This document shows positions 3,499-18,161 of a stretch of DNA of 64,000 nt, one piece after another (within the stretch, counting starts at the first letter, position 1; each line of letters begins with the position of its first letter). The translations under genes and the position numbers were made by a program. The stretch lies in UHGV virus genome UHGV-0142425; one strand, given 5' to 3'. Under the pieces are notes generated by a model that was not told the origin of the DNA, ran no database searches, and saw nothing but the letters and a program-made list of their open reading frames with translations. The DNA is from a virus.

Positions 3499-4542
3499 TT
3501 ATCTAACGCTCGACGAATGACTTGTGATAGCGCCGACTCCAAGCGCGTAATCAAAGAACAATCGTTGATGCATCGCCAGCCTGCCGTGTGTTTTCTCCCA
3601 ATTATCGCGGTCACGCTCAATATCACGCTGGCATGACTGGCACAGAGGAATCGCATAAATGTCATGCGCGCATAATCGACTATGACGAACGATATAAGGC
3701 GTAATGTGAGCGCCAGCTCCCGCAGCTCCACACCCACAGCATGGACGGGAAGCAACAAAGTCCATGTACTCAGGTAATTTTAGCGATTGCAGTTTTGGTA
3801 TTTTGAAATGCGCCATGCCAGGGTCGGAGTCAACATCCACAGGGCATACTTTTGCTCGCATCGGCGCGGCGCGTTCTTCCATCATCTGAACATATGCTGT
3901 AGCGCGATCGTCATACGGGCGAATATCCGCCTCTTTCAGAGGCCCGCTATCCTGCGTTGCAGTCTTAATCTTATTTATTGATATACGGCAGACTTCTTCC
4001 GGCATCAGGTGCATCATGTCGCGCATGAAAGCCCACCAGCACAGTTCCTGAATACTTAAATCATGGCCATCTGAAAGCCCCATTTCCTGACGGGCGACAT
4101 CCAGTATCCAGTTAACGCGATTATTATGCAGCGTTTCTTTCAGCTCATTAAGACCACGCATCCGGTAATGGTTATCGTGATGCCAGCACAACAACACCGC
4201 GCTATTGTCTCGTTCTGCGTGGACAATATGGTTGTCACACCAGCTCCGATCTGCGGCCTGGCATTGCCCCTCTTTCCTGCGCAACCACGCCACCAGCGCG
4301 TCAATTCCACCAATACGGCGAAACAGTTCATCGCTGTTAAAAAACGGCTGCAACGCCTCATTTGTTGCCATAGTTTGCTCGGAAACAACGAGGCCGTCGT
4401 CCATGTGCTCGATTAACTCACGCGGCACCGGCTCCATAATAAATTTACGGCCAGCCTCCACCAGCTTTCTGACTTCCTGATCCACTTTGAATGTGGCGAC
4501 GCCAAGCTCTTTTTGTACAAAGGGAGTAATTACGGCTTTCAC
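3499..4542 (-). CDS. Hypothetical protein, 347 aa (position of P1 pdcB)
   Basis: ORF track; Cys-rich C-terminus; no recognised domain. Confidence 0.5.
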
Positions 4543-4569
4543 ATCACACCTTTCATCACTGATTGGGCT

Positions 4570-4749
4570 TTATCTGCTGCCCGGCATTCTCTGTTTAAGC
4601 ACAACCATTTCCTGACGACATAACACAGCAATAGCAATCCTGGCTCCAATTTGCTTACCAACCAGGTATTGCTTTACCTCGCGGCGACTCACGCCATCAA
4701 GAAGCATCTTTAACGCTTCACGGGACAATTTGTTGTATTTACGTGCCAT
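4570..4749 (-). CDS. Small basic protein, about 59 aa from internal Met
   Basis: ORF track 4570..4770; start uncertain. Confidence 0.3.
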   Translation of the reverse strand: MARKYNKLSREALKMLLDGVSRREVKQYLVGKQIGARIAIAVLCRQEMVVLKQRMPGSR

Positions 4750-4753
4750 TAAT

Positions 4754-5029
4754 CTACTCCGCGGAACCATACAATCTACGTAGCGTGGTAGCAGTAGATG
4801 CAGATATCGCCCTTAAAATCTCCTCCTTACTTACATCACTGCGGGAGAGGAGTTCAGAAAGCGATATTTCCTTTAACGACTTTTGCTTCTCTTTGCAGTT
4901 CTCGACCAGTTCCGCAGGAATAACAAACCTACTATCAATCGGCACAAGTTCATCAAGCGTTTGTTTGGGTACGTTAAACGTAGGATTCTTGAACACCGCA
5001 GATTCGGTCCTTAAGTTAATTTTCGACAT
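4754..5029 (-). CDS. Hypothetical protein, 91 aa
   Basis: ORF track; no recognised domain. Confidence 0.35.
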   Translation of the reverse strand: MSKINLRTESAVFKNPTFNVPKQTLDELVPIDSRFVIPAELVENCKEKQKSLKEISLSELLSRSDVSKEEILRAISASTATTLRRLYGSAE

Positions 5030-5048
5030 TGTTTCGTAACTCCACTAC

Positions 5049-5429
5049 TCAGGTCTTGGAACCATATAGTTCACGTAGCTTTTCTGCGACTGAAGATACG
5101 GCGATTTCACCAGTTGCAGCCCCTACGGTAAGGTCTACCAGTTCAGGTGAGTCAAATACCTGCACCCCATTACGGCGTAGGAATAGCAGCGCACTGTTTA
5201 GCGCGGTACGCTTATTGGCATCATTGAATATATGCCCTCTCGCAGTAGCCACCAGGTAGGTTGCGGAGACTTCGAAAAGGTCGGTAATCTCTTCGTACAC
5301 AACTCTGGCCTGGACTCTCCCGATAATGGCCTCTGCCCTGCCCGGATCTGACATGCCAGGCAGGCCGCCGTAGCGGTTTATATTCGCATCATGAAGCGCA
5401 ATAAGTTCTTCCGGTGATATATGCCTCAT
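5049..5429 (-). CDS. doc: Doc toxin (Fic-fold kinase), addiction module, 126 aa
   Basis: Protein recognised as P1 Doc; directly downstream of phd with ATGA overlap. Confidence 0.9.
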
Positions 5430-5650
5430 TATCGGTTAACCAGTTCCTTGTTGGTGGAGTCCAGGGTGTCAAACAGGGATGCAAATTCAGCATCCAGCGC
5501 CGCTTTTTTGTAGGCTTCGAAAGTAGCCTTGCTGACAATTACTGCTGGCTCACGGCCTCTGCGGGTGATTTCAACCTCTTCCCCGGCTTCAACATTGTTG
5601 AGCACTTCAGAAAGGTTGCCGCGCGCGGTACGGAAGTTAATGGATTGCAT
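5429..5650 (-). CDS. phd: Phd antitoxin, 73 aa (start at the second Met of the 75-aa ORF)
   Basis: [52 protein letters not shown]... recognised as P1 Phd. Confidence 0.9.
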
Positions 5651-5654
5651 AAAC

Positions 5655-5685
5655 ACCTCGTGTACTCGTTATGTGTACACAATTA
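5655..5685. promoter_or_regulatory. phd-doc promoter/operator with GTGTAC-type palindromes (TGTGTACACA at 5672-5681)
   Basis: Palindromes read directly upstream of phd; Phd/Doc autoregulation is established for P1. Confidence 0.6.
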
Positions 5686-5722
5686 TAAACTTCACAGGCA
5701 TAAAGCACCAGCACTTTGCAGC

Positions 5723-6112
5723 TTAAATCACCGGACAATCATCAAATTCCCCACTTCGGGCATCATTGATGACATGAGTGATCACACCAAAAACAGCATT
5801 ACTGCCCGTGTATCCATCGTCATCCACTGGTAACGCCTCTTTCTTCCCGGTGCTTAAATCCTCCAGGTGCTGGCGCGGATACTTCCGGTATCTCTTTATG
5901 CGATATTCACCCTCCATAGCGCACACAAGCAGAGAACCATCAACCGGAGTAAGCGAGGAATCAACCACCAGCAAAGCACCCTGCAATATTCCCTCACGGT
6001 GATGGCTATCAGCTGCCCGCATGAAGTAGGTTGCTGATGGATGCCTGATTAGTTGCTGATCAAGAGAAATTCGGCTTTCAACATAATCCGCCGCAGGAGA
6101 AGGGAAGCCCAT
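5723..6112 (-). CDS. humD: UmuD-like SOS mutagenesis protein (LexA/S24 peptidase fold), 129 aa
   Basis: Recognised as P1 HumD; canonical LexA box 20 bp upstream. Confidence 0.85.
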   Translation of the reverse strand: MGFPSPAADYVESRISLDQQLIRHPSATYFMRAADSHHREGILQGALLVVDSSLTPVDGSLLVCAMEGEYRIKRYRKYPRQHLEDLSTGKKEALPVDDDGYTGSNAVFGVITHVINDARSGEFDDCPVI

Positions 6113-6131
6113 AGCGTTTTCACCTCAATAA

Positions 6132-6151
6132 TACTGTTCATTTATACAGTA
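6132..6151. promoter_or_regulatory. LexA (SOS) box TACTGTTCATTTATACAGTA between divergent humD and the 6287 gene
   Basis: Exact CTGT-N8-ACAG palindrome matching the E. coli SOS box consensus. Confidence 0.85.
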
Positions 6152-6286
6152 TACATTAAAGAGACACCTTTGGTGCAAACGCGTTACGTACATCAACCAC
6201 CGCTGATTATTTTGTGCTCTTTGCTACTATTCATCACCAACGGATCAGCGTAACCTCGTTGCCAATCAGTTAATAAGGAATTAGCT

Positions 6287-6868
6287 ATGCCTAATCGCAT
6301 TCCTCTCGATCCTGTATTGCCCAAAAATTTTGACTGCACTCCTAACGAGAAACGCTCTAAAGCTCAGCTGGACGCCTGGTGGGACCATCCCTATGGGGTT
6401 ACACACCCTGACGGGAAAATTGTTGTTTATTGTCTGAATGGTGGCGCGTGGGACCGTCCATCCGTGCTTGGTTTGGCAAATAACTATGATGAAGCCTGTG
6501 AACTTGCCGAAAGACAGCAGGCTAGATGGGTGAAAACACGGTCACAGCCGACATTCATGTTTTCAAAAGAACCGCCATTTATACTGGCGAGGATGCCGCA
6601 GCGACCGGATCATCAACAAGAAATTGTTGCTGAATTTTCCTCAAGGGATGAGATGAATCTCTTCTCATTAAAGCAGGAAGAAAGGGAGCGCGTCGAAGTG
6701 TCTCCAACTCTCGACCACAACCGGATGAACCTGGCCCAACTCGCCTGGTACAGCAAAGAATTAGAGATGTCTATTGCCCGACTTGAAAACGAAAAAGCCG
6801 CTATCCAAGCCCAGCATGAAGTAGTTCTGAACCGGATTAGAGAAATGCAAAACGATAATAGAGGCTAA
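6287..6868 (+). CDS. Hypothetical protein, 193 aa, C-terminal coiled coil; divergent from humD and probably SOS-regulated
   Basis: ORF track; AAGGA RBS; shares the LexA-box intergenic region. Confidence 0.6.
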   Translation: MPNRIPLDPVLPKNFDCTPNEKRSKAQLDAWWDHPYGVTHPDGKIVVYCLNGGAWDRPSVLGLANNYDEACELAERQQARWVKTRSQPTFMFSKEPPFILARMPQRPDHQQEIVAEFSSRDEMNLFSLKQEERERVEVSPTLDHNRMNLAQLAWYSKELEMSIARLENEKAAIQAQHEVVLNRIREMQNDNRG

Positions 6869-6892
6869 ATCGAGGTAGAAAACACATTGTTT

Positions 6893-6913
6893 AAGGCCAC
6901 TAATTGTGGCCTC
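6893..6913. terminator. Hairpin (GGCCAC-TAATT-GTGGCC) between convergent genes
   Basis: Inverted repeat read in sequence. Confidence 0.5.
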
Positions 6914-6928
6914 AAAGGGGAGAGATGC

Positions 6929-7453
6929 TTATTGGCTATGGCTAAAAATCAAATGAGACACTTCATGTGGTTGTAGCTCGTCAAGATCCGGGGCCACAAA
7001 ACCTTTTCCGAAAGACTTCACAAGTAATTCACCAGCCGCATCATTGTCACCTATTACACGAAAGTCATACGGCAGCATCGCAAGTTGACGGCGTAATCCT
7101 GCGGAGAAAGTCGAACCTAACAGCGCCCACGAATTGCCGCCCGCGTTGTGTACAGCTGCGCTCTTAAAAATAGACTCAGTTATCCATATTGGGCCATCTT
7201 TTAAAGGAAGATAGGTTCCCCAAAGTAACTGTTTGCCATGTGATCGCGTGAAATACCGAGCCATCTTCGGATTGCTATGCTGCTTAGGAGCACCTGGTCT
7301 ATATGTCTGATACCCAGCCAACATCCCATCAAATCTGTATAGAGGGAATGTAACTACTCCTTCACTTTCATCGATCCACTGTCTATATGGGTGTATATCA
7401 TGGCGGTAGTTACGAGTTAGCAAATGAGCTTCCAGCTTTCCAAATTTTGTCAT
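6929..7453 (-). CDS. Small Toprim-like protein, about 174 aa
   Basis: Motifs ITESIF (Glu) and VIGDNDAAGELL (DxD) resemble primase/topoisomerase Toprim; start at Met with AGGAAG RBS. Confidence 0.45.
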   Translation of the reverse strand: MTKFGKLEAHLLTRNYRHDIHPYRQWIDESEGVVTFPLYRFDGMLAGYQTYRPGAPKQHSNPKMARYFTRSHGKQLLWGTYLPLKDGPIWITESIFKSAAVHNAGGNSWALLGSTFSAGLRRQLAMLPYDFRVIGDNDAAGELLVKSFGKGFVAPDLDELQPHEVSHLIFSHSQ

Positions 7454-7501
7454 AATTCCGTTCTTCCTGGCTTTTAGCTGCAATATTGCAGTTGCTCATG
7501 T

Positions 7502-7774
7502 TTAAAGCTCACATTTCCAGATGGTATTCTGAACACCCGAACCGGGAGCGAGATGGGGATTAGCGTTCGCGCTATGCTGATATACGGCTTTAGACTTCCC
7601 ATATTGCTGACAGGCTTTATCTGCGGTTTTTTGCAAGCTATCAAGGCCATACCAACCATCTGACTGTATGCTTACCTTTTCACCGTCGTTGTATTGCACC
7701 ATTGCACACCCAGATATAGCCAGTATCGCGCCGACAATAACGCTTTTCCATAAAACTCTATACAACATAGACAA
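7502..7774 (-). CDS. Small lipoprotein, 90 aa
   Basis: Signal peptide with lipobox ...AILAISGC. Confidence 0.55.
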   Translation of the reverse strand: MSMLYRVLWKSVIVGAILAISGCAMVQYNDGEKVSIQSDGWYGLDSLQKTADKACQQYGKSKAVYQHSANANPHLAPGSGVQNTIWKCEL

Positions 7775-7813
7775 AAATCCCCTCTGTGAATTGAGGGGAT
7801 TTTAGCATGGTGA

Positions 7814-8071
7814 TCAGAGATCAGCTTTATGCAGAATTTTATCCACCAGCGATGTGATTTTTTCTGCCAGGTCATCATTACTTACCCAATCCTGGCGGGC
7901 AGCCAGAACGGGCGACAAAGTTAATATTAACTCTCGCCGTAATGATGCGTTCCGTGGTGCTAGTGGTGGTTTAAGCCCCTCGCTCCCTTGTATTTCTGGG
8001 GTATGCGGCTGATAGCCATTAATCATCCTTTTTTTCTCCATTTTCGGTGGGCGCGGACGCGGGAGAATCAT
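7814..8071 (-). CDS. Hypothetical Pro-rich protein, about 85 aa
   Basis: ORF track 7814..8101; start chosen at Met with GAGAAAGGA RBS. Confidence 0.4.
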   Translation of the reverse strand: MILPRPRPPKMEKKRMINGYQPHTPEIQGSEGLKPPLAPRNASLRRELILTLSPVLAARQDWVSNDDLAEKITSLVDKILHKADL

Positions 8072-8376
8072 GATTCCTTTCTCTTCCTGCATACTGGGCA
8101 TGTGTTCTCTGTGAAATATGGGAAACTATTATCCAGCTCATCTACCCACTGTTTATGGTCGAAGCAGAAAAATATCTCCCACGGCATTCCATATTCTTCC
8201 ATCCATAGGCGGATCTGCATTTCTATTGGAATCGGCGGTATTGCAGACACCATATCAACAGGATAACAGTTCAGACGACGTTCCAGTTCTTCTACTCTCT
8301 TCTGGAGATGAAATATCCGATCCAGATGCACACGCCGCTCCCGTGCCATTTTAAAATAAAGCTCGCCGGTCATCAT
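8068..8376 (-). CDS. Coiled-coil plus C-terminal Zn-ribbon-like protein, paralogue A (102 aa)
   Basis: C-terminal W-x-F-C-x-DH-x-W-x-DELD-x-SFPYF-x-E-x3-CPxCR shared with the adjacent gene. Confidence 0.55.
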   Translation of the reverse strand: MMTGELYFKMARERRVHLDRIFHLQKRVEELERRLNCYPVDMVSAIPPIPIEMQIRLWMEEYGMPWEIFFCFDHKQWVDELDNSFPYFTENTCPVCRKRKES

Positions 8377-8657
8377 TAACTCCTACATTCAGGGCAAGAG
8401 TTCCCTTCCGCAAAATAGGGGAAACTGCTATCAAGCTCATCACACCATCTGCGATGGTCGTAGCACCAAAACGCCTCCCACGGTGCACGGAAATACTTCA
8501 TCCACCAGGACACTCGATCAGGTATATCTGCTGGTGGCAGCTCTTCTGGCAATAATTTGCCTGATAATTCCCTTTCCGCCCGCGCCAGCATTCCTTTTAG
8601 ACTCGCATTCTCTTTTTCAAGAATCTCTATGCGCGCCTGTAACTCAGCTTTCGTTGG
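8376..8657 (-). CDS. Coiled-coil plus C-terminal Zn-ribbon-like protein, paralogue B (about 94 aa)
   Basis: Same C-terminal motif as 8068..8376; start chosen at MPTKAEL with GAGG RBS (ORF track extends to 8741). Confidence 0.5.
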   Translation of the reverse strand, partial: PTKAELQARIEILEKENASLKGMLARAERELSGKLLPEELPPADIPDRVSWWMKYFRAPWEAFWCYDHRRWCDELDSSFPYFAEGNSCPECRS

Positions 8658-9324
8658 CATGGTCCGCCTCATGCTTTTCAGCCACCAGCGGCAATAAAGC
8701 CCTGGCCATCTTATGAACCAATAGTGCATCAATAATGCCAAGCGTATGCCCCGGCTTAATGTTTAATGCCGCCTCAAGGTGACACCTTTCCAAGCCACTT
8801 TTCTCGGCTTGTTTATGATGATCTGGCGTAATAACGTCGCCCAAAACACGGCTAATTCTTTCTCGTAATTGCTGGGTGCCAGCACACTTGATCGCTGTAT
8901 CGTGGAGACGGTTAACCAGTTCGCGATAAACATGCGGCTTAATGCGGATACGTCCACCGGTGACGCCCTTTCCTGGCGCTGACACCGAACTATCCGGAAT
9001 ATCCGGATAGTTGCCAGCCTCGTAAGCTACCCGCAGCCAGTGCATGAATGTTTCAGTGGACACACAACCACAGTCCACATCGATTTTTCCGCGTTGCTGT
9101 TCCAGCCACTGCTCAAAATTCAATCTACACGTATTACTTTCATGTTGCTCTTTTTGTCTCAAGGCCAGTACCTGTTGGGCCAGTTCCAGAACGATACCGG
9201 GTGACGCTAACCTCTCAAATTCCAATAAATAGTTTGTGTCAGGATGACAAGTAGCCTCGCCTGCAAAAAATACCAATTGCTGTAAGTATGCTGTCGTTAG
9301 AGTAGTCATTTCTTTTTGCGCCAT
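8644..9324 (-). CDS. Hypothetical protein, 226 aa
   Basis: ORF track; translationally coupled in the operon. Confidence 0.5.
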   Translation of the reverse strand: MAQKEMTTLTTAYLQQLVFFAGEATCHPDTNYLLEFERLASPGIVLELAQQVLALRQKEQHESNTCRLNFEQWLEQQRGKIDVDCGCVSTETFMHWLRVAYEAGNYPDIPDSSVSAPGKGVTGGRIRIKPHVYRELVNRLHDTAIKCAGTQQLRERISRVLGDVITPDHHKQAEKSGLERCHLEAALNIKPGHTLGIIDALLVHKMARALLPLVAEKHEADHANES

Positions 9325-9680
9325 TTCTTTTCACATTCCTTAGTCCATTTTTCAATGTTCATTTTGGCAATATCAGTCATTCCGTCACCCAAGAAATACT
9401 TTTTCCGGTATGTCTTGCACTTAAACCACACTACAACAGCCACCAGCCAGAAAATAAAAGGCCATACAGCAATGCCAACGACAGCCGCGATAAAGCCCAA
9501 TAGCCATAAATGAAGCTCTCCAACTTCTGTTTCCGGCAATATTCTTAAAGAATTAAACAGCAGGGTGAACGAATGATCGTATGCATTGGCAGTATAAGAC
9601 ATGCAATCCATATAATTAAAGTCATAGCCTGCGGCTGCCGCCCATAATGGGCGGTCAAGAAAATGTTTTAGTGTCATCAT
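9306..9680 (-). CDS. Membrane protein (one long hydrophobic segment, Lys-rich C-terminus), 124 aa
   Basis: Hydrophobic stretch LWLLGFIAAVVGIAVWPFIFWLVAVVVWF. Confidence 0.5.
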   Translation of the reverse strand: MMTLKHFLDRPLWAAAAGYDFNYMDCMSYTANAYDHSFTLLFNSLRILPETEVGELHLWLLGFIAAVVGIAVWPFIFWLVAVVVWFKCKTYRKKYFLGDGMTDIAKMNIEKWTKECEKKWRKKK

Positions 9681-9686
9681 ATTAAT

Positions 9687-9980
9687 TTAAGGTTCAGACC
9701 AGTTATCTTCAATAGCAATGCTTAATCTTTGTAGCCATTCTGCTAATTTCAGCATTGCTTCTCTTTCGCTTAAACCACGAGGAAAATCATCAAGCGATAT
9801 TGTTGGCTTGAAGCCCCCGTAATTATCCATTTCAACGGTCAGATTTTGCTCCAGTACGGTATTCCTTACGCGGCTATTGTGGCGAAGCAAATATACTGAA
9901 CGTGATTTATTGGTTTTGTGGTCGAGCTGATATTCGGTAAGTATCATCTGGCTTTTGCCATGACTATTACCTCTCCACAT
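9687..9980 (-). CDS. Hypothetical soluble protein, about 97 aa, coupled to the upstream hydrophobic peptide
   Basis: Start ATG overlaps GAGGTAAG RBS right after the peptide stop; ORF track gives a longer 129-aa frame. Confidence 0.4.
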   Translation of the reverse strand: MWRGNSHGKSQMILTEYQLDHKTNKSRSVYLLRHNSRVRNTVLEQNLTVEMDNYGGFKPTISLDDFPRGLSEREAMLKLAEWLQRLSIAIEDNWSEP

Positions 9981-9987
9981 ACTTACC

Positions 9988-10110
9988 TCACTTAATAAAA
10001 CAACTCCATGCGTAGTTGATGATTTTTTCCCACGTAATATAAATCTGCACTCCGGCAGTAAAACCAAAGCCAACAATTGCTGAAAAAATCAAAACATTTA
10101 CTTTTGACAT
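9988..10110 (-). CDS. Small hydrophobic peptide, 39 aa (MSKVNVLIFSAIVGFGFTAGVQIYITWEKIINYAWSCFIK)
   Basis: Read manually; below the ORF-track size cutoff; single predicted TM helix. Confidence 0.35.
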   Translation of the reverse strand: MSKVNVLIFSAIVGFGFTAGVQIYITWEKIINYAWSCFIK

Positions 10111-10158
10111 TATAAATTTTCTCTCGGTGTCGTAGGTGATAGCACCATAATTGATAAT

Positions 10159-10392
10159 TTAGTGAGTTAGCAGCTCCATTTTTTGGATGATTTCCGCATG
10201 AGCATCATCGTTATCAACACTTAACTCGTTTAATGCCTCTCGCACCACATCAACTTCTTCTGGTTGGAAGAAATCATCTCGGTAGTCACCAAATAGAACC
10301 GAAACAAGCCTGCCACCAGCAACATCAAGATTGGCGCTAACAGGTGGCTCTTTACCATCCTCAAATTCGACTACAAAAGTTATTTTTCCCAT
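10159..10392 (-). CDS. Hypothetical acidic protein, about 77 aa
   Basis: ORF track 10159..10410; start at MGKITFVV. Confidence 0.45.
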   Translation of the reverse strand: MGKITFVVEFEDGKEPPVSANLDVAGGRLVSVLFGDYRDDFFQPEEVDVVREALNELSVDNDDAHAEIIQKMELLTH

Positions 10393-10474
10393 CGTTACCA
10401 CCAGCGACAAATTGAATACAAACCCAGTGCTGCCGCCATCACAATTCCTACCGTGGTGAATGCTTCAGGCCAGC

Positions 10475-11746
10475 TCATTGATTCACCTCCTGCGGCGGTT
10501 CTGGTAGCGGCATCCAGTGTGATGGTTTCCACGACGCACCAGGAATTATCCACCCATCATTAGCGTCAGGATGCCCCGGGATGTAAGTAGCCCATTTCAT
10601 TCGCCAGTCACCTTTCCTGTCAAACTCCACGGCAACAAGAACGGCTGTTTTGGTATCCGGCATTCGCTCACTACAGCTTATCCAACCATCCGGAGTTACC
10701 GGAGAGTTGCCAGCTAGTCTACGCAAAACAGCCTTAACAGCCTCAATACGGTCATCATCGCAACTTTCCAGCGTATCTATGCGATCGAGCATGATGATGG
10801 CGTTATCAATATCAGGATTGCCGGTCCACTCATTACCGCGATTGGATTCGGCAGCCTGGTTGCCAGATGCTGGTTGATTGTCGGCATGGCTATAGCTAAC
10901 AGCACGGCAGGCATCCTCAACGCCTTTAACTGCATCTGCGCAGTAGTTATAGCGATTGCATTCCACTAATTTCCGTTTGAGTTTTTCAATTGCCTGCGCG
11001 ACATCAGCCTGCATTACCGGAACTGGCGGAACGGCTGTTTGCTCTCGAACGTCATTAGTCGCTATCGGTTCTGCTGCCAACTGACTGGCATATTTGTTAA
11101 TGGTAACGATAAGCTCTTGCTCAGCCTCATCCAGACAATCATCGATACCTCGCCTGTCACCGTCAAAATCATCGAAATCGGCACGAATCTTGGCAACCTT
11201 CAGGATTGCGGACAACACCTCACTAGGAATTACCGGATAGTTGGTTGACGTTTCCGCGATTTCCCGAAAATTATTGGTTGACGAATTCTTGTTTTCCCGA
11301 AAGTTTCCGGACTGAAGCATGGCGTCGCTCCGCTCTATACCATCCAGCGCGATTCGCAGTGCCTGAATTGTGGTAGAGCTATCGTTTGGGGCTATTCCAT
11401 ATCGCTCGAATACAGCTAAATGGTTGCGCATAATCTCAGGCGTAAGCTCTTTGTAAGCATAAGCAAGAGGCTCTGATGCATTATCCGGCACAACCGACGC
11501 AGGCGCGGCAGCATAAACAGGAATAACGTCCGCTTGCTCTTTATTGCTTTCATCCGTTAAAGCCCAGAATAATTTCCCGGCCGGATGTTTGAAAATATAA
11601 GCAACTGGTTCTGCTTCCAGTGATGCCAGCGCAATTTTGTATACTTCCAGATCCATTTGTGCAGTTACTAAATCAGGATAACGATCCATAACCGTTATAT
11701 TGCGCTTAATCATCTCTATTAATTGTTCTTTAGTAAAAGTGGTCAT
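10475..11746 (-). CDS. Ead/Ea22-like N-terminal region fused to a DUF551-like C-terminal domain, 423 aa
   Basis: N-terminus MTTFTKEQLIEM...LASLEAEP; C-terminus WISCSERMPD...WMPLPEPP; pattern recognition, no search. Confidence 0.5.
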   Translation of the reverse strand: MTTFTKEQLIEMIKRNITVMDRYPDLVTAQMDLEVYKIALASLEAEPVAYIFKHPAGKLFWALTDESNKEQADVIPVYAAAPASVVPDNASEPLAYAYKELTPEIMRNHLAVFERYGIAPNDSSTTIQALRIALDGIERSDAMLQSGNFRENKNSSTNNFREIAETSTNYPVIPSEVLSAILKVAKIRADFDDFDGDRRGIDDCLDEAEQELIVTINKYASQLAAEPIATNDVREQTAVPPVPVMQADVAQAIEKLKRKLVECNRYNYCADAVKGVEDACRAVSYSHADNQPASGNQAAESNRGNEWTGNPDIDNAIIMLDRIDTLESCDDDRIEAVKAVLRRLAGNSPVTPDGWISCSERMPDTKTAVLVAVEFDRKGDWRMKWATYIPGHPDANDGWIIPGASWKPSHWMPLPEPPQEVNQ

Positions 11747-11756
11747 TCGTTATGCC

Positions 11757-11954
11757 TCAATACACAAAATCTGTTTTAAATTCATGGTTACATTCTGGAC
11801 AGCATGTTTCGTAACCTTTTATTTCTTCACATGCCTGTTTTGCTCCAGAAAATTCCCAGAAATCTGGATCACAAAGCAGATCGAAATTGTGACCGCATTT
11901 TGGGCATTCGGTATCAAGTGACAGATTCCAGTAAGCAGTGGTGTTTTTATCCAT
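11757..11954 (-). CDS. Small zinc-ribbon protein, about 65 aa
   Basis: CPKCGH...CCPECNH motifs. Confidence 0.45.
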   Translation of the reverse strand: MDKNTTAYWNLSLDTECPKCGHNFDLLCDPDFWEFSGAKQACEEIKGYETCCPECNHEFKTDFVY

Positions 11955-11955
11955 A

Positions 11956-12177
11956 TCAGTCTCCTTTACCCGCTGCTTTCTCCTGCTCTTTAGCAAGCCG
12001 CTCCGCTTCTCTGAAATCCCAATCCACTCGATGTGCTATATCAATTGCAGAACGCACGGTCCGTTCAATTAGCGTGTCCAGATTATCAATTGTCATTGCC
12101 ATATCTGGATTGCGAGATAAAATCTCCGCCCTCTGAATCTGCCAGTTGTTGCAGGTTTCAAGTAATGAGTTAGCCAT
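11956..12177 (-). CDS. Hypothetical protein, about 73 aa
   Basis: Start at MANSLLE with GGAAAGG RBS; stop/start overlap with neighbour. Confidence 0.4.
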   Translation of the reverse strand: MANSLLETCNNWQIQRAEILSRNPDMAMTIDNLDTLIERTVRSAIDIAHRVDWDFREAERLAKEQEKAAGKGD

Positions 12178-12178
12178 A

Positions 12179-12565
12179 TCACTTTCCTTTCCCATGAAGC
12201 ATAGCCGCGCGGCAGGCATTCCAGCCTCTTACCTCTGCAATAGCGGCAACAGCATCAACCGCGTACATGCTAAGAGGATTAGGCATTGGTTTTTCTTCCG
12301 GTACTACTGGAACGGGGGGAGCGGCGTAGACCTCAATAATTCCATTATCAATAGGCCACTCCCCATCCTTGATGTAGTCACTTGTGCCGTCAACTTGCTG
12401 TTCTGCAATGTGGAATGCACCTATTGGTTTTGCTTCCAGCGATGCCAGAGCAATTCGTGCCAGTTCTTCCGCTTCTTCTGCTGGCAGTACAACGTTGCTA
12501 CCAGGTCCGTATGTTTCGCGCCACTGCTGGATTGTCAGCAGGCGTTCTTTGGTAATAGTGATCAT
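12179..12565 (-). CDS. Ead/Ea22-like protein, 128 aa
   Basis: MITITKERLLTIQQWRETYGP...LASLEAKP typical of lambdoid Ea22-like proteins. Confidence 0.5.
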   Translation of the reverse strand: MITITKERLLTIQQWRETYGPGSNVVLPAEEAEELARIALASLEAKPIGAFHIAEQQVDGTSDYIKDGEWPIDNGIIEVYAAPPVPVVPEEKPMPNPLSMYAVDAVAAIAEVRGWNACRAAMLHGKGK

Positions 12566-13077
12566 GCTGCGTTTCCTTCTTTCTTATTAACAATTACACC
12601 GTCATATATTTCATTAAGGTGCCCTCTCAACTCCATGCGCCTTAATGCAGATAACATGTAATCGCATTCAACCTGCTTATTTCCAGTAAATGGCTTATCG
12701 TCAGGATTACCCCAACAGCAATTACCCTTGGGCCACCCATGTACTTTCCGTACTCTTCCGTTAACAACGTGAAGTAATCCCCAGCCAGGTGGTAAATCCT
12801 CAATTGAAATAATTCCCGGCTCACTAATAAAGAATCGCCAGTCTCCCATTCCAAGAGACGGATTTTTACGAAAACGCTTTTTTCTATCTGCCAACAAGTC
12901 AGCACGAGAACATTTCGCCTCTATCAGGCATGATGCTGAATTTCTGAATCCCATAGCATCTGGCTGTTCTCCGGTACTGGTTACAGCTATAAAGCGGTCA
13001 TGAAAACAAACCTTGAACCCGTTGCGCTTAAGGAACTTGTACGCAATCTGACAGAGTTCGCGGTGTGTTAACGCCAT
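12562..13077 (-). CDS. PD-(D/E)xK nuclease-fold protein, about 171 aa
   Basis: D...CLIEAKCSR (E-x-K) motif; start at MALTHRE with AAGGAGAG RBS. Confidence 0.45.
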   Translation of the reverse strand: MALTHRELCQIAYKFLKRNGFKVCFHDRFIAVTSTGEQPDAMGFRNSASCLIEAKCSRADLLADRKKRFRKNPSLGMGDWRFFISEPGIISIEDLPPGWGLLHVVNGRVRKVHGWPKGNCCWGNPDDKPFTGNKQVECDYMLSALRRMELRGHLNEIYDGVIVNKKEGNAA

Positions 13078-13078
13078 A

Positions 13079-13675
13079 TCACTCTCCTTTGATGCGAATG
13101 CCAGCTGCGCTTGCTGATTCTTCATATGCGCGTTTAGCAGCGTTAAGGATTGCTGTCAGTGGCGTATATCCGCCATCCATTCGGATTGTGTTGTGGATGC
13201 CAGCCATTGTGTCGCGCAATTTGCTGTGGCTAGCAGACAGTTCTGCTATGCGCTTCTCTGCGGATTCCAGCGCTGCAACCAATTCGTCTACAGTTCCGGC
13301 AGCTTGCAGTGCGTAATCGGTAATAGCCATCTCATGATCAATTTCAGTACCGTTCTCATTCGTTGAGGTGATAGCAAAATAATCAGAGTCGATTTCGTTA
13401 TCAGCTAAGTGGCGTAGCGTATCGGCAACAAGCTGACCGTTTTCGATTAACAGTTTCCCTACCGTTAGCGCAATATCCTCGTTCTCCTGGTCGCGGCGTT
13501 TGATGTATTGCTGGTTTCTTTCCCGTTCATCCAGAAGCGCCAGCACAATGCGTGGCGTTATTAAGGACTCAAATTCGGCAACAGCTTGCTCACCTCGCTT
13601 GTAATTCTTAATCTCACCTAAATCTTTCGCGTTCTGTGCTGCCTCACGCAGTGCCTGGTAATTAATTTCGCTCAC
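13079..13675 (-). CDS. Ead/Ea22-like family protein, 198 aa
   Basis: INYQALREAAQNA ... PRIVLALLDERE motif. Confidence 0.5.
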   Translation of the reverse strand: MSEINYQALREAAQNAKDLGEIKNYKRGEQAVAEFESLITPRIVLALLDERERNQQYIKRRDQENEDIALTVGKLLIENGQLVADTLRHLADNEIDSDYFAITSTNENGTEIDHEMAITDYALQAAGTVDELVAALESAEKRIAELSASHSKLRDTMAGIHNTIRMDGGYTPLTAILNAAKRAYEESASAAGIRIKGE

Positions 13676-14364
13676 TGGTTGCCTCCTTTGCGAAGCTGGG
13701 CAGCAAAGTCAACTAACCACTCAGTCATTTCAACCTTCCCTACCAGGTCTGAACCAGGGTGCATACAGCAATCACTCTGCGCCGCTTTGAAATCCTTATA
13801 CTCATATTCTTGGACCACCAGATTTTTTGCAGCTTCTATAGCAGCATCCACCCCCTGCGCCCGCACTTCAGACAGGAAAGCATCAGTGGCTGGAATGGGC
13901 TTTTGTGGTGATATAGCAATGCGAATTGTCTCAAGGTCTGGATCTGTTTCCGCTGCTGGCACCTTGATATAACCCATCTGCACCCCATTCATGATGAACC
14001 TGCGACGGTCATCACATATCGCCTTTAGCCCCACATTCTCCGCCACCAGCGCCGCGAGATTAGTCTCAAGCTCTGCAATTCGACACATAGCATCAATATT
14101 TGTGTCCTCCAGGCGCTTAATTTCATCCAGTAGAGCCAGCACAACTTTGGGTGGGATAGCCGCGATATAACGGGCATTGGCACCAGCGTTTCTCTGTCCA
14201 TCAATGCCAGGCCAGTCAATAAAGTATCCGCAATGCCTACCCTCAGACGTATGCGCAGGATAAGTGCCGTTTTGCCCCGGCAAAATATATGCTACCCATT
14301 CATCTTGCGTTGCCTGTTCCGCCGCCTCGCGCAGTACCTGATAGTCAATTGTCATTCTCGCCAT
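13672..14364 (-). CDS. Ead/Ea22-like family protein, 230 aa
   Basis: IDYQVLREAAEQA ... PKVVLALLDEIKRLE motif. Confidence 0.5.
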   Translation of the reverse strand: MARMTIDYQVLREAAEQATQDEWVAYILPGQNGTYPAHTSEGRHCGYFIDWPGIDGQRNAGANARYIAAIPPKVVLALLDEIKRLEDTNIDAMCRIAELETNLAALVAENVGLKAICDDRRRFIMNGVQMGYIKVPAAETDPDLETIRIAISPQKPIPATDAFLSEVRAQGVDAAIEAAKNLVVQEYEYKDFKAAQSDCCMHPGSDLVGKVEMTEWLVDFAAQLRKGGNQ

Positions 14365-15017
14365 CCTTCACAGTTGTAATCACTACAGCCTTCAAAATCA
14401 TATGGGCTGTACTGCCAGGTGATTTTTCCGCAATGCGGACAATTCCAACGCACCTTCCCGCTTCGCGACTTCTTTCTTCTGTTCTGCTTTTTCAACCAGT
14501 CAGGCATGATCAAACCTGCGCCCTGAACCATTGTTCTGCGGTTAAAGTTATTGATATTGAACGTCCGGCGCTTTGCTGCATCAGCAATGGAAAATGGCAA
14601 CCAAACTATTCCTGGTTCGTTTTTGTTGGCGACGCTAAAGATGGTCGCTTTACTGAAGTCATCTGTTGGCAATCCACCGTGTTGAAGCCAGTAAACATCG
14701 TTGCCGTTCCAGCTACCTTTTTTGTAGGCCACATACGCAGTGCAATCTGACTCAATCAGGCTTTCTGTAGGGATGTACTGGCAATCAACGTGCCACACAG
14801 CCATTGCATCCACGCTATCAGCGCAAACAGGCTGATCGATATCTCGTCCACAATTCCAGGCTTTTTGGGCTTCTTCCAGCGTGTAAACATGAGCGCGATC
14901 AATATCAGAACTGTAACCATTGCCGTTATGGCAATGGAATGAGGCGTTATTACCCACAGTTTCACGCAAGCACATCATGTAAAAGCGGTTATTCACTGGT
15001 TGCCTCCGCTTCCCCAC
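14352..15017 (-). CDS. Hypothetical Cys-rich protein, about 208-221 aa
   Basis: ORF track; start ambiguous (GTG at 15017 or ATG at 14978). Confidence 0.45.
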   Translation of the reverse strand: MGKRRQPVNNRFYMMCLRETVGNNASFHCHNGNGYSSDIDRAHVYTLEEAQKAWNCGRDIDQPVCADSVDAMAVWHVDCQYIPTESLIESDCTAYVAYKKGSWNGNDVYWLQHGGLPTDDFSKATIFSVANKNEPGIVWLPFSIADAAKRRTFNINNFNRRTMVQGAGLIMPDWLKKQNRRKKSRSGKVRWNCPHCGKITWQYSPYDFEGCSDYNCEGWRE

Positions 15018-15250
15018 GTTTTCAGACTTTCACCACAGAACGGGCAAAATGAAACTCGAATAGGCGATTTAGAAAATTCACCAGACCGCAGCATGATCAG
15101 GTCTTGTGAATGAATTAATTCATGGTTATAGATTTTGTATTTCAGCAGACCTTTTCGCGTCGTGTATTCAGCGTCATGCTCCAGGGATTGTGTCAACGCC
15201 GCGCACGGTTCTATCTTGTTGCCATTAATTTGGCATTTTGACTCACTCAC
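14993..15250 (-). CDS. Small protein with C-terminal CPFCG zinc-ribbon-like motif, about 85 aa
   Basis: GTG start with AGGGGG RBS just after the upstream stop. Confidence 0.35.
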   Translation of the reverse strand: MSESKCQINGNKIEPCAALTQSLEHDAEYTTRKGLLKYKIYNHELIHSQDLIMLRSGEFSKSPIRVSFCPFCGESLKTWGSGGNQ

Positions 15251-15824
15251 TGGTTGCCCCCTGAATACGCTCAAACTCTATTACCCACACCCAAGGATTA
15301 GCGTTCCAACTATCTTCGCCATAAATTGATTTCCATAGGCTACGGAAACCTGGGTAATGCTTATCGCCAATGAGGGTCGATTCTGTTGGTGCGCCCTCAG
15401 CCCTTGCATCGCATTCGCTGATATCGTTCAACCGCTCAACGCGCACGTTGGTAATTTCCAGAAGAATGCGCGATGCCCAGCGCGGCATGTGAATTGATGG
15501 AGTCCACTTTTCTGATACTGGTTTATTACAAACCTCGACCGGAACCCGGTGCGTTTGTTCTGTCCAGGAGTTACGCACGCTTGCGCGATAAACCAGCGTT
15601 GCTACGTCCGTCGCTTTGCCATGTACCCGGTAGGTTTCGCGAACCCAAATACGATCGCCCGGTTGACCATATGGACAATGCTTGGCAAGCAACTCTGCGG
15701 CCACTGCCCGTCCATAGAATTTTTCTTCAACAATCCTGCGAGTCTGTGTTTTATTCCCGCCAAGAATTGCCCGGACCATCTCATCGTTAAAAATCATGCC
15801 GCGCTCTTTCACTTCGCCTTTCAT
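15243..15824 (-). CDS. ASCH-like domain protein, 193 aa
   Basis: N-terminal MIFNDEMVRAILGGNKTQTRR resembles ASCH-family proteins. Confidence 0.45.
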   Translation of the reverse strand: MKGEVKERGMIFNDEMVRAILGGNKTQTRRIVEEKFYGRAVAAELLAKHCPYGQPGDRIWVRETYRVHGKATDVATLVYRASVRNSWTEQTHRVPVEVCNKPVSEKWTPSIHMPRWASRILLEITNVRVERLNDISECDARAEGAPTESTLIGDKHYPGFRSLWKSIYGEDSWNANPWVWVIEFERIQGATSE

Positions 15825-15833
15825 GCATCCCCC

Positions 15834-15920
15834 TTACCCATGTGCGACGATGCCGCCAAAAGTGATAGAGAACAGCCAGAAATAGATCGCGGCCATAATG
15901 ATTTTGAATGCCGTGTTCAT
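15834..15920 (-). CDS. Leader hydrophobic peptide, 28 aa (MNTAFKIIMAAIYFWLFSITFGGIVAHG)
   Basis: Read manually; CAGGAG RBS; first ORF after the C1-controlled promoter. Confidence 0.3.
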   Translation of the reverse strand: MNTAFKIIMAAIYFWLFSITFGGIVAHG

Positions 15921-16002
15921 ATTTTCAGCTCCTGTGATTGATTGGATACATGCCGCGCCTTGCGGCATGTTTTTATTTTCACTTTCTCTGTTTTAAAAAT
16001 CA

Positions 16003-16019
16003 AGATTTATTAGAGCAAT
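16003..16019 (-). promoter_or_regulatory. C1 operator (16/17 match) at the promoter of the long early operon running leftwards
   Basis: AGATTTATTAGAGCAAT = reverse complement of ATTGCTCTAATAAATCT. Confidence 0.7.
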
Positions 16020-16525
16020 TATTGCTGATGGAGAAGCGCGTTTTCATACTCCCTGACCATTAACGTAAGTACGCCGTGACTCCTGAAAACACGCGCCACT
16101 TCAATCTTATCTTCCAGCGCGAACGCGATTTTACTTAGACCAATTTTCTTAAGGAGATCAATCTTTGCTGGGCCGTCATTTCTGTCATCGGTGGCAGGAC
16201 GCATAGATAGCAAAGGCTCAGCCCCGTTTGTTACGTACTTCCGCAGCCAAGCTCGTGTTTTATCCCTTGCGATCTCACAGCGCCCGGTTACAAACCAGAC
16301 CGTGTAAACGTTAAATAACTGGCGCACCATATCAATAACTGGAGTGATGGGAGTATCGGTGTCACAGGCGAGATTAAACTCGTTCCAGTCCTTTGTTAAT
16401 GCACCTTTACCTGGTGGCGGAAGCAAATGCAGTCTGTCTTCAGTTGCCTCTGATATTGTTCCATCAATATCGACTATGACGATATACGGACGTTCCTGGT
16501 GTGCGTGTTTATTGAAAATACTCAA
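16019..16525 (-). CDS. HAD-superfamily phosphatase, 168 aa
   Basis: Motif I IVIVDIDGTIS (DxDGT); TTG start with GAGGAGGG RBS. Confidence 0.6.
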   Translation of the reverse strand: MSIFNKHAHQERPYIVIVDIDGTISEATEDRLHLLPPPGKGALTKDWNEFNLACDTDTPITPVIDMVRQLFNVYTVWFVTGRCEIARDKTRAWLRKYVTNGAEPLLSMRPATDDRNDGPAKIDLLKKIGLSKIAFALEDKIEVARVFRSHGVLTLMVREYENALLHQQ

Positions 16526-16543
16526 ATGCCCTCCTCATTGGAC

Positions 16544-16580
16544 GAAAAAAATGCTGGTGGGACGCACTCCACCAGCATTA
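16544..16580 (-). terminator. Rho-independent terminator (11-bp stem, U-run on minus-strand RNA) between the 420-aa gene and the HAD gene
   Basis: AATGCTGGTGG-loop-CCACCAGCATT flanked by A/T runs; contains a Chi octamer. Confidence 0.6.
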
Positions 16581-16598
16581 AAAGTGACACTGTAACTA

Positions 16599-17861
16599 TC
16601 AGCGAACGTAAATAGTGCCGCCGTTCTCTTTTTCCCATGCATCGCTACGTGCATAGCAAACATCGAGAAGTCTTCTTGCCGCTGTTTCCTCTAAACCCAA
16701 TTCGACAACCAACTGCTCATGACGGCGGGTAACCACATCAAACAGGGTATGCAGCCCTTTAGTTGCCAGATCATCAATGAATTCCGGTTCGAACGGCAGC
16801 TCTGCATCTGCCAACATAACCTCTTGCGCCCACTCGACACGGCGGACCAGTTCCGGGCGGCGGCTTTCCATCTCTTTACAGATCAATTCATGGAAGAACT
16901 CTACCCAACCTTCCGGCTGGAACTCGCGGAAAATTGCCAACGGCTGGAAGTTTGGCATCAACCATTCGTTGATTCGGATATCAATGGCATAGCCCATGTC
17001 GCAGCAGAACTGATAAGCAAAGTCCAGCTTAGAAACGATATAAGGACGCTCGTTATTGAACTCTTTAGGCGATGAGATCCCATAAGCCAGGAGGCGCGGG
17101 AAGAAGGAGATTTGCCCTAACGTCGGATGAAGTTTGCTTGCAGGGAAACGGCGCTCAGTAATGCCATACATTTCCTTCTTGAGCGTCGCAAATTTGGCAT
17201 TCTCATTAACCAGCGCGGTAACCTCTGCTTTTTTATTAGCAAATGCCACGCGCGCCTCGCTTGCATCTTTAATAGTTTTTTTGAGCTGTTGGTTAAGGTC
17301 GGCGACCTGCTTACGCAGTTCCTGTCGCTCGCTTTTAGCTTTGTTATAGCGTTTCTCAAGGTTAAAAGGATCAAGTTTCATGATCTCTTTATATTGAGAT
17401 TTTAGCGTTGAAATCTGTGAGTTCCGCAGTTCAACCATCGCGGTCATTTCATTGAGTTTTGTTTCCAGCTCAATGCTTATACGTTCGGCATTATCAGCAC
17501 GCTGGTTGGCGTCATGCGTCGCATCGTCGATCGCGTCCTGTTGCTGGCGTTTCAAATGTTCAATTTGCAGCTGAAGCTCTTCAATTTCTTTACCCTTCAG
17601 ACCGAGATCCAACTGCATATTTTCAGCTGCATCTACCAGGGAGTTATGGCTATCAGCTTCTGCGTTATAAACATCAATAAGCTGTGCGTGAAGCATCTCC
17701 GCTGACTGAACCGCATTATCAAAAAAACGCGCTGTGAGGTCATCACAACTAACGCGGCGTTGCGCGGCTCGGATGTTCTGGATAATGGCCGGGATACCGG
17801 CATTCAGGACGTCAGGGATAGATACATTTTCGATTGATTGGTTTTGTGCTGAAGTGCTCAT
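16599..17861 (-). CDS. Hypothetical protein, 420 aa, long central coiled coil and conserved-looking C-terminal domain
   Basis: ORF track; no Walker or nuclease motif recognised. Confidence 0.6.
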   Translation of the reverse strand: MSTSAQNQSIENVSIPDVLNAGIPAIIQNIRAAQRRVSCDDLTARFFDNAVQSAEMLHAQLIDVYNAEADSHNSLVDAAENMQLDLGLKGKEIEELQLQIEHLKRQQQDAIDDATHDANQRADNAERISIELETKLNEMTAMVELRNSQISTLKSQYKEIMKLDPFNLEKRYNKAKSERQELRKQVADLNQQLKKTIKDASEARVAFANKKAEVTALVNENAKFATLKKEMYGITERRFPASKLHPTLGQISFFPRLLAYGISSPKEFNNERPYIVSKLDFAYQFCCDMGYAIDIRINEWLMPNFQPLAIFREFQPEGWVEFFHELICKEMESRRPELVRRVEWAQEVMLADAELPFEPEFIDDLATKGLHTLFDVVTRRHEQLVVELGLEETAARRLLDVCYARSDAWEKENGGTIYVR

Positions 17862-18095: not shown

Positions 18096-18112
18096 ATTGC
18101 TCTAATAAAAAA
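18096..18112 (+). promoter_or_regulatory. C1 operator (14/17) at the promoter of the 17863-16599 unit
   Basis: ATTGCTCTAATAAAAAA. Confidence 0.6.
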
Positions 18113-18134
18113 CGTGATGAGTGTACATCACGTT
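18111..18134 (-). terminator. Rho-independent terminator hairpin with flanking A/T runs, ending the upstream minus-strand operon
   Basis: AACGTGATG-AGTGTAC-ATCACGTT read in sequence. Confidence 0.55.
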
Positions 18135-18144
18135 TTAAAAATAT

Positions 18145-18161
18145 GGAATTATTAGAGCAAT
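18145..18161 (-). promoter_or_regulatory. Second C1 operator-like site (14/17) flanking the terminator
   Basis: GGAATTATTAGAGCAAT. Confidence 0.5.

Follow-up and report, generated by a model that had tools for sequence, protein, structure and literature searches.

A block of tightly packed small genes at positions 6929-16019 of the virus genome UHGV-0142425 raises the question of what kind of operon it is and from which gene pool its members were drawn. The whole stretch of DNA that was analysed, 64,000 nucleotides in length, is called the window below. A first-pass annotation, made from the letters alone, read the block as a C1-repressed early operon of about 25 small genes with lambdoid accessory-type domains, and left it to alignment to tell which of them belong to the backbone of phage P1. 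Our analysis indicates that the block is very probably the Op88-controlled early accessory operon of a P1-like phage-plasmid, placed in the slot between pap and lxr/humD, assembled from cassettes of the lambdoid gene pool and encoding dispensable early modulators. P1-like phage-plasmids are common in Escherichia coli and Salmonella and spread resistance genes, and the pap-lxr slot is one of their eight published variable regions. The block is the counterpart of the P1 pmgT-hot operon and of the P7 'hea' operon, already published as variable region 8 (pmgT to humD; PMC9603915), and recently exchanged genes make up ~30% of the gene content of P1-like phage-plasmids (PMC10879196). The array is a new combination of known parts and not a new kind of system; the lambdoid-type content of the slot has previously been annotated in P7. 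What is gained is one more array for the slot with a clean gene map, which a specialist would expect, a tested PD-(D/E)xK assignment for one product (g07) and the recognition that another (g22) resembles a truncated DnaG-type primase core alternating with hot. The ~20 cassettes, presumably early and non-essential, are reasonable candidates for host-takeover or counter-defence screens.

When 6500-16500 was used as a megablast query, the relatives retrieved were the Punavirus records SJ46, P7, RCS47 and P1-like entries, together with ~1,400 plasmids, and the window is therefore taken to come from a P1-like phage-plasmid. The slot itself is bounded by P1-like backbone, with pap on one side and a convergent lxr-like gene and humD on the other. 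Local BLAST comparisons, with P1, P7, SJ46, three plasmids and one Stx2c phage as subjects, put the identity of these flanks to P1 at 96.5-97.8% (15733-17000 and 6001-6854); the pap product matches the Pfam family HAD_PNKP and the humD counterpart contains a Peptidase_S24 domain. The interior is another matter. Coverage of the megablast query reaches 15% in P1, 50% in SJ46 and 84% in NZ_CP063155.1, the best plasmid, and none covers the whole block; searches of phage, plasmid and E. coli genome collections did not recover the exact gene order. The alignment to P1 proposed at first pass accordingly reveals a block that is not colinear with P1, in which the backbone share is limited to the ends and two short pieces. 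The four shared segments are 15733-17000, which runs from pap through the operator, the leader and g01 into g02 as far as codon ~30 (this part of g02 corresponds to the start of pmgT), a stretch of 116 nt within g02, 347 nt of the 3' part of g17 (8679-9025, corresponding to pmgU and the 3' end of pmgT) and the lxr flank. With P7 and SJ46 the block has g01-g04 in common, at 98.6-98.7% identity, together with scattered pieces, and the remaining block is a patchwork. At the same place the P7 hea operon carries homologues of g02-g05 and g11, and its upf86.8-upf87.6 are 98.6% identical to g02-g04 at the DNA level.

The window array thus has its slot, strand, operator, predicted promoters, 5' hairpin and leader open reading frame (ORF) in common with the Op88 operon of P1 and P7. 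It differs from the P1 operon in lacking hot, pmgV, upfM-O and the late promoter LPhot, in having a primase-core gene as its terminal gene, and in its pap-lxr distance of 9.16 kb, where the P1-type array has 2.55 kb. P1 pmgT opens with the same ~30 codons as g02 (window 15733-15824), and the overlapping P1 genes pmgT and pmgU (7640-8709 in the P1 locus, L001) look like recombinant remnants of the longer arrays found in most relatives. In P7, IS903 (3993-5049 in the P7 locus, L002) sits inside the remnant of a g22-type toprim gene; its flanks (L002 3803-3992 and 5050-5133) map to window 6877-7141 with a 9-nt overlap (7057-7065), as for a 9-bp target duplication.

The control region of the operon is conserved. 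The C1 operator ATTGCTCTAATAAATCT, placed by the first-pass annotation at 16003 at the head of the array, is identical to P1 Op88/OpmgT; it is asymmetric, comprises 17 bp with one mismatch to the C1 consensus, and belongs to nine C1-operator-like sites found in the window against 0.33 expected. The matching P1 site is described in GenBank as 'monovalent C1-controlled operator OpmgT, former Op88', accompanied by two predicted promoters, and the P7 record names Op(hea), 'predicted to regulate expression of hea operon'. From the operator through the first codons of g02 the DNA is practically identical to P1 in a gapless alignment. The -35 hexamers of the predicted promoters (TTGCTC and TTGATT) overlap the operator, and the -10 hexamers are TAAAAC and GAAAAT. 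Downstream lies a stem-loop that may be an mRNA-stabilising 5' hairpin; it reads as a terminator on the plus strand and is conserved in P1 and in IMG/VR loci, of which 80 were fetched via the Pap protein, each with 10 kb downstream. The leader ORF g01, encoding MNTAFKIIMAAIYFWLFSITFGGIVAHG, could specify a leader peptide or a small membrane peptide. The same peptide is encoded in P1 (L001 ~8719-8805), where AF234172 leaves the ORF unannotated, and in 58 of the 66 loci with a readable leader ORF. g01 was found in 78 of the 80 loci, the other two stopping within a few bases of pap, and is detected by tblastn even where hsd genes replace the array. Within the array, sigma-70-like sites show no excess over the shuffled expectation, and none of the five sites found in the window by a scan for P1 Lpa-type late promoters falls there.

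Behind this constant head the slot is highly variable. All 80 loci keep a pap flank of 93-99% identity, and the 37 complete arrays (those reaching lxr or humD) show 34 distinct gene orders and lengths of 2.5-9.5 kb, the window array being among the longest measured. A true P1-type array is present in only two of the 80 loci. In 17 others EcoR124-type type I restriction-modification genes (hsdR/S/M) on the opposite strand stand in place of the array, lxr, humD and phd (an example is given in Table 1); the pap-lxr slot holds either early accessory genes or a defence system. Phage 'accessory regions' have been described as hypervariable clusters between conserved flanks that are enriched in counter-defence genes (Silas et al., bioRxiv 10.1101/2023.04.06.535777). 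The window array has the same layout, with conserved flanks (pap and the operator; lxr/humD) and a hypervariable interior of small, presumably non-essential genes. In the Pfam, NCBIfam and PADLOC scans none of its genes matched a characterised counter-defence protein, and a counter-defence role of the array is putative.

The hsd loci also speak for a different reading, in which the array would be a prophage defence or superinfection-exclusion island that protects the lysogen, with g07, g22, the lipoprotein g21 and the membrane peptides as effectors. PD-(D/E)xK and Toprim folds are common among defence nucleases, g21 has a lipobox, and some receptor-blocking exclusion proteins have one as well. 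We nevertheless regard such an island as improbable: genes behind a C1 operator should be silent in the lysogen, where defence must act; the hsd variants replace the array from the opposite strand and do not extend it; the homologous lambdoid genes lie within the pL early transcript; and the fold of g22 matches primase polymerase domains over 147-165 residues, not nucleases of the OLD or Gabija type. PADLOC returned only a sub-threshold PglZ fragment for all 22 products, and NCBIfam only a sub-threshold YnfU zinc match. From the context we infer that the array products may act in anti-defence or host takeover.

The interior of the accessory operon points to lambdoid phages as members of the same gene pool. 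Window segments 10482-10717, 11313-11636, 12425-13096 and 13451-13546 are 96-99% identical to the Stx2c-converting lambdoid phage Stx2_5044, and 13638-15007 is 87.6% identical to it. In that phage (locus L007) the shared DNA lies on the leftward strand between the integrase gene and the genes for the Erf recombinase, the N antiterminator and the CI-type repressor, and is its pL early-left accessory region; segments that are 88-99% identical between int and erf/N/cI bear out the lambdoid early-left type suggested at first pass. Matches to parts of the block were found in 3,712 of the 5,426 complete E. coli genomes, at 7,402 places on chromosomes and 1,460 on plasmids. Ea22 proteins combine a conserved N-terminus and a coiled coil with swappable C-terminal domains, DUF551 being found in one variant, and are pro-lysogenic; the exo-xis genes are non-essential modulators of the lysis-lysogeny decision (PMC10834534, PMC7093339, PMC3824215). 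YfdS, a DUF551 protein, belongs to a prophage cluster that inhibits replication initiation upon over-expression (PMC4776307). With the lambdoid exo-xis or 'ea' pL region (lambda ea22 and orf60a-63; P22 ead; Stx phages) the window array has in common Ea22/Ead and DUF551 proteins, arrays of small, coupled, non-essential early genes, the nearly identical DNA segments and short junction boxes (see below). It stands under a single P1 C1 operator, whereas the lambdoid genes stand under pL and N antitermination, and it is carried on a plasmid prophage without adjoining int or xis; homologues of orf60a, orf61, orf63 and orf73 were not detected in it. Lambdoid regions extend from int/xis to the recombination genes and are transcribed from pL under N, whereas the window array follows a C1 operator in the pap-lxr slot; it resembles the exo-xis/ea region in working and gene pool and is not a member of it by position or regulation.

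Gene calls were made from the ORF list with a survey of start codons and Shine-Dalgarno sequences, and yielded 22 probable genes (g01-g22), each of them encoded by the minus strand, from 15920 to 6929 (Table 1). This count is lower than the approximately 25 first proposed; the tight co-directional packing holds, with a coding fraction of 0.99, a largest intergenic gap of 48 nt and overlaps at 10 of the 21 junctions (four ATGA/GTGA, one TAATG-type and five longer). Every one of the 22 ORFs is intact, and a Shine-Dalgarno sequence or an overlap with the preceding stop accompanies most starts. No credible plus-strand gene was found in the array, and no PHROG family matched any of six ORFs of the plus strand, two alternative ones of the minus strand or g20 scanned by itself. 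Rfam (E<=0.1) and tRNA scans across 5500-17000 returned no match, nor did phmmer with the concatenated products against PDB sequences. Pfam matches to 'Serglycin' were disregarded as spurious products of the GS linkers in the concatenated products.

Several of the domains suspected at first pass are recovered by Pfam, namely Ead/Ea22 (PF13935, E=8e-39) in two stretches corresponding to g05 and g06, and DUF551 (E=2.8e-21) in g11. g05 and g06 have their N-terminal module in common and differ at their C-termini. For the suspected zinc ribbons, CxxC pairs are present in g04, g10, g18 and g19, but the matches to zinc-ribbon hidden Markov models are weak. ASCH, Toprim and PD-(D/E)xK families were not found by Pfam at E<=10 among ten products searched singly. 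The products of g01, g12, g14 and g16 are hydrophobic. Among the complete arrays, g04 is found in 21 of 37 and g21 in nine. The tandem paralogues g18 and g19 (8068-8660) have a common C-terminal motif, W..F.C.DH..W.DELD.SFPYF...CP.C, behind differing coiled-coil N-termini.

Table 1. Positions of the control elements, genes, junction boxes and hairpins of the array in the window, in the order of the array, followed by one example of a replaced array in a related locus (aa, amino-acid residues).
Feature	Position	Strand	Remarks
C1 repressor operator ATTGCTCTAATAAATCT	16003..16019	-	identical to P1 Op88/OpmgT (P7 Op(hea)); abuts pap stop codon
Promoter region	15975..16018	-	identical to P1pmgT/P2pmgT sigma-70 promoters predicted in the P1 record; coordinates transferred via gapless identity
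5' stem-loop, 9-bp GC-rich stem	15948..15970	-	-16.3 kcal/mol, z -3.8; near predicted transcript 5' end
g01, 28-aa hydrophobic peptide ORF	15834..15920	-	AGGAG Shine-Dalgarno; conserved operon head
g02, 193 aa	15243..15824	-	P7 Upf86.8 homologue; phrog_874; first ~30 codons common to P1 pmgT
g03, 85 aa	14993..15250	-	P7 Upf87.4 homologue; phrog_4030; C-terminal CxxC
g04, 214 aa	14352..14996	-	P7 Upf87.6 homologue; phrog_2457; 10 Cys, C-terminal zinc-ribbon-like CxxC...C...C
g05, 230 aa, Ead/Ea22-like	13672..14364	-	PF13935; phrog_368
g06, 198 aa, second Ead/Ea22-like	13079..13675	-	second PF13935 stretch; phrog_250
g07, 171 aa, predicted PD-(D/E)xK (restriction-endonuclease-fold) protein	12562..13077	-	
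g08, 128 aa	12179..12565	-	N-terminal module common to g11 (phrog_3323/5117/660 match both)
g09, 73 aa, acidic	11956..12177	-	phrog_10585
g10, 65 aa, zinc-ribbon (CPKC...CCPEC)	11757..11954	-	phrog_4173; weak YnfU and Rad50 zinc-hook matches
g11, 423 aa, multi-module, C-terminal DUF551 (P7 Upf89.5-like)	10475..11746	-	PF04448
g12, 27 aa, hydrophobic peptide	10395..10478	-	AGGAGG Shine-Dalgarno, ATGA overlap; no PHROG family
g13, 77 aa, acidic	10159..10392	-	phrog_3876
g14, 40 aa, membrane peptide	9988..10110	-	phrog_5525
g15, 97 aa	9687..9980	-	phrog_1258
g16, 124 aa, membrane protein	9306..9680	-	phrog_2638; strongly hydrophobic at 58-88
g17, 226 aa	8644..9324	-	3' part 94.8% identical to P1 pmgU / 3' pmgT region
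g18, 94 aa	8376..8660	-	coiled coil and C-terminal Cys/His motif; phrog_3797
g19, 102 aa, g18 paralogue	8068..8376	-	phrog_3797
g20, 95 aa, basic ORF	7814..8101	-	least certain gene; no PHROG family; conserved in a few related arrays
g21, 88 aa, predicted lipoprotein (lipobox LAISGC)	7502..7768	-	phrog_7757
g22, 174 aa, resembling a stand-alone DnaG/T7-type primase RNA-polymerase core (N-terminal subdomain and Toprim)	6929..7453	-	
Junction box A GGCAACCAGTGA, three copies	15247-15258, 14993-15004, 13672-13683 (span 13672..15258)	-	Shine-Dalgarno, spacer, GTG start overlapping TGA stop
Junction box B GGArAnTGATATGG, three copies	13074-13087, 12174-12187, 11951-11964 (span 11951..13087)	-	Shine-Dalgarno, TGA stop, ATG start
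Internal terminator-like hairpin, UUUUUGU tail	7774..7803	-	-18.9 kcal/mol, z -3.9; between g20 and g21
Distal hairpin	6890..6916	-	-16.9 kcal/mol, z -3.8; between g22 and convergent lxr-like gene (6287-6868, +)
hsd replacement example (IMG/VR contig 3300045988_162118)	L032 10772-16786	opposite	hsdR 1058 aa, hsdS, hsdM

Two individual products were followed by structure modelling. For g07 a confident AlphaFold model (predicted local distance difference test score 85.6) matches restriction-endonuclease-like folds, and D40/E53/K55 are invariant in 38 homologues down to 59% identity, which supports its assignment to the PD-(D/E)xK superfamily, as the first reading had it. Fusions of the g07 domain to a preceding Ead/Ea22 N-terminal module (PF13935) are found in Salmonella and in some E. 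coli contigs (P0111, P0113, P0124 and P0029), and suggest that the domain can serve as one interchangeable Ea22 C-terminal domain.

The Toprim-like signature belongs to g22, which has PHROG 'DNA primase' matches, a family profile that matches DnaG chains in the PDB and a Toprim fold match. E93/D136/D138, the Glu and DxD metal-binding motif, are invariant down to 32% identity, and the confident structure model is fully accounted for by the RNA-polymerase domain (RPD) core. g22 has no zinc finger, because its 174 residues include zero cysteine, and neither a zinc-binding domain nor a helicase or helicase-binding domain was found in it. From its model it resembles a DnaG-type primase core, not a complete primase. 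It is similar to the compact, ~165-173-residue 'DNA primase' of Providencia phage PSTCR5 and Proteus phage Privateer (Foldseek E 7e-17 and template-modelling score 0.85 for PSTCR5). Like the RPD of DnaG and T7 gp4 it keeps the invariant metal-binding E and DxD; in contrast to these proteins it lacks the zinc-binding and helicase(-binding) domains and is encoded in accessory arrays and not beside a helicase. Any primase activity is putative. Its distant homologues likewise lie in long arrays of small unknown genes, not adjoining helicases. Among the 37 complete arrays the terminal gene is hot in 25 and g22 in five, and the two never occur together (P1 hot, L001 6367-6630); seven P7-type arrays have neither and carry upf93.6. 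As for the ASCH-like domain proposed at first pass, g02 is 100% identical to WP_000675643.1, which RefSeq names 'ASCH domain-containing protein'. No ASCH match was obtained for it with Pfam (E<=10), NCBIfam or BLASTP to E. coli YqfB, and hhalign against YqfB aligned only residues 12-32 to 8-28, a 21-residue motif, at a probability of 2.5%.

The ends of homology blocks, mapped on the window, give 72 distinct breakpoints. Of these, 42% lie <=40 nt from a gene boundary against 23% at random (P ~2e-4), and the others cluster inside the multi-module genes g05, g06, g11 and g17, with g11 the most internally mosaic. Exchange points prefer gene junctions, and some fall at domain boundaries within multi-module genes. 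Two short boxes recur at unrelated junctions of the array, box A in three copies (0.31 expected) and box B in three (0.01 expected), every copy at a gene junction. The 80 loci contain 80 copies of box A and 48 of box B, which without exception lie downstream of pap and on the strand of the array; the Stx2c phage has both boxes as well. They are coupling cassettes made up of ribosome-binding site, stop and start, similar to the 'short conserved boundary sequences' put forward for lambdoid mosaicism (PMC3029335, citing Clark 2001 and Susskind and Botstein 1978). That they are preferred exchange points was ruled out: a breakpoint lies within 10 nt of five of the six boxes and also of nine of the 15 box-less junctions. 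We claim no special role for the boxes because box-less junctions are breakpoints about as often.

Such extreme mosaicism, intragenic breakpoints included, could also be expected of a decaying graveyard of recombination debris, in which ORFs persist by chance without selected function, and annotated pseudogenes and frameshifts in the slot of relatives, the P7 IS903 inside its toprim-gene remnant and the family-less g20 agree with that. Decay is very unlikely, however, in an array that is 99% coding with every ORF intact and Shine-Dalgarno or coupled starts, in which 19 of 22 genes belong to phage protein families, both structure models are confident, and the predicted catalytic residues of g07 and g22 are invariant across divergent homologues. 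In P1, pmgT, pmgU, pmgV, upfN, upfO and hot are non-essential by CRISPR interference (CRISPRi; PMC10695390); upfM, for which CRISPRi targeting was impossible, is non-essential according to a deletion survey cited there, and the main texts of the P1 transcriptome and deletion papers make no mention of these genes. The P1 names pmgT/U/V ('putative morphogenetic function'), and the label 'morphogenetic protein' of homologues in the P1 annotation and some UniRef names, would make the array a morphogenesis operon of the backbone. This is hardly credible when these three P1 genes are dispensable both by CRISPRi and in the cited survey (PMC10695390), gene orders differ as widely as described, the array is absent from 17 of 80 loci and the only PHROG structural category encountered is one head-tail connector fragment (E=8.5e-4).

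The early accessory operon would work as follows. In the plasmid-prophage state, C1 bound to the single operator overlapping the -35 hexamers would keep it off, as judged from its identity to P1. Upon infection or induction, one leftward transcript would start at ~15,970 with the 5' stem-loop and the 28-residue hydrophobic leader ORF and read through ~21 cistrons coupled in translation as far as the 6,890-6,916 hairpin, though some of the transcription may stop at the internal hairpin at 7,774-7,803. The cargo is not P1 backbone; it is a patchwork of cassettes from the same pool as the lambdoid pL 'exo-xis/ea' region, with two Ea22-like proteins, DUF551, PD-(D/E)xK and zinc-ribbon proteins, a lipoprotein, several small membrane peptides and a DnaG-type primase core that lacks a zinc finger. 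Its products, which would not be morphogenetic, would be dispensable and act early to modulate the host and the balance of lysis and lysogeny, possibly with counter-defence factors among them.

Several points weigh against this picture. Transcription, C1 binding and co-transcription of the array are carried over from P1 by sequence identity. The PHROG families matched by 19 of the 22 products are mostly of unknown function, the 'DNA primase' families of g22 excepted, and no product matches a known anti-defence, anti-restriction or defence family in the Pfam, NCBIfam and PADLOC scans. Nor is the end of the transcript clear-cut. The terminator that had been placed at 6893 is a real hairpin (6890-6916) and the probable transcript end, but its U-tract is weak and the hairpin at 7774-7803 is the better terminator-like candidate, which could split the block into two transcription units. 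The 3' arm of this internal hairpin holds the GAGGGG Shine-Dalgarno sequence of g21, so that it could attenuate transcription, gate g21 translation or do both, and the two distal genes may be partly insulated by it.

A more far-reaching version of the accessory-operon reading is speculative, and we consider it rather doubtful. In it, the slot would house an array of cassettes gated by C1, and entire cistrons would pass back and forth between this array and the pL regions of resident lambdoid prophages, the coupling boxes serving as homology patches for exchange. The distal position would be reserved for Hot (a homologue of Pol III theta) or g22, never both, and g22 would be a factor that manipulates the host replisome or the P1 Ban helicase and not a bona fide primase.

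Elsewhere in the window, eight more C1-operator-like sites were noted, among them an overlapping inverted pair at 31720-31736(+) and 31731-31747(-). Another pair, at 18096 and 18145 (region 18096-18161), matches the arrangement of OpmgRb and OpmgRa upstream of pmgR-pmgS in P1.

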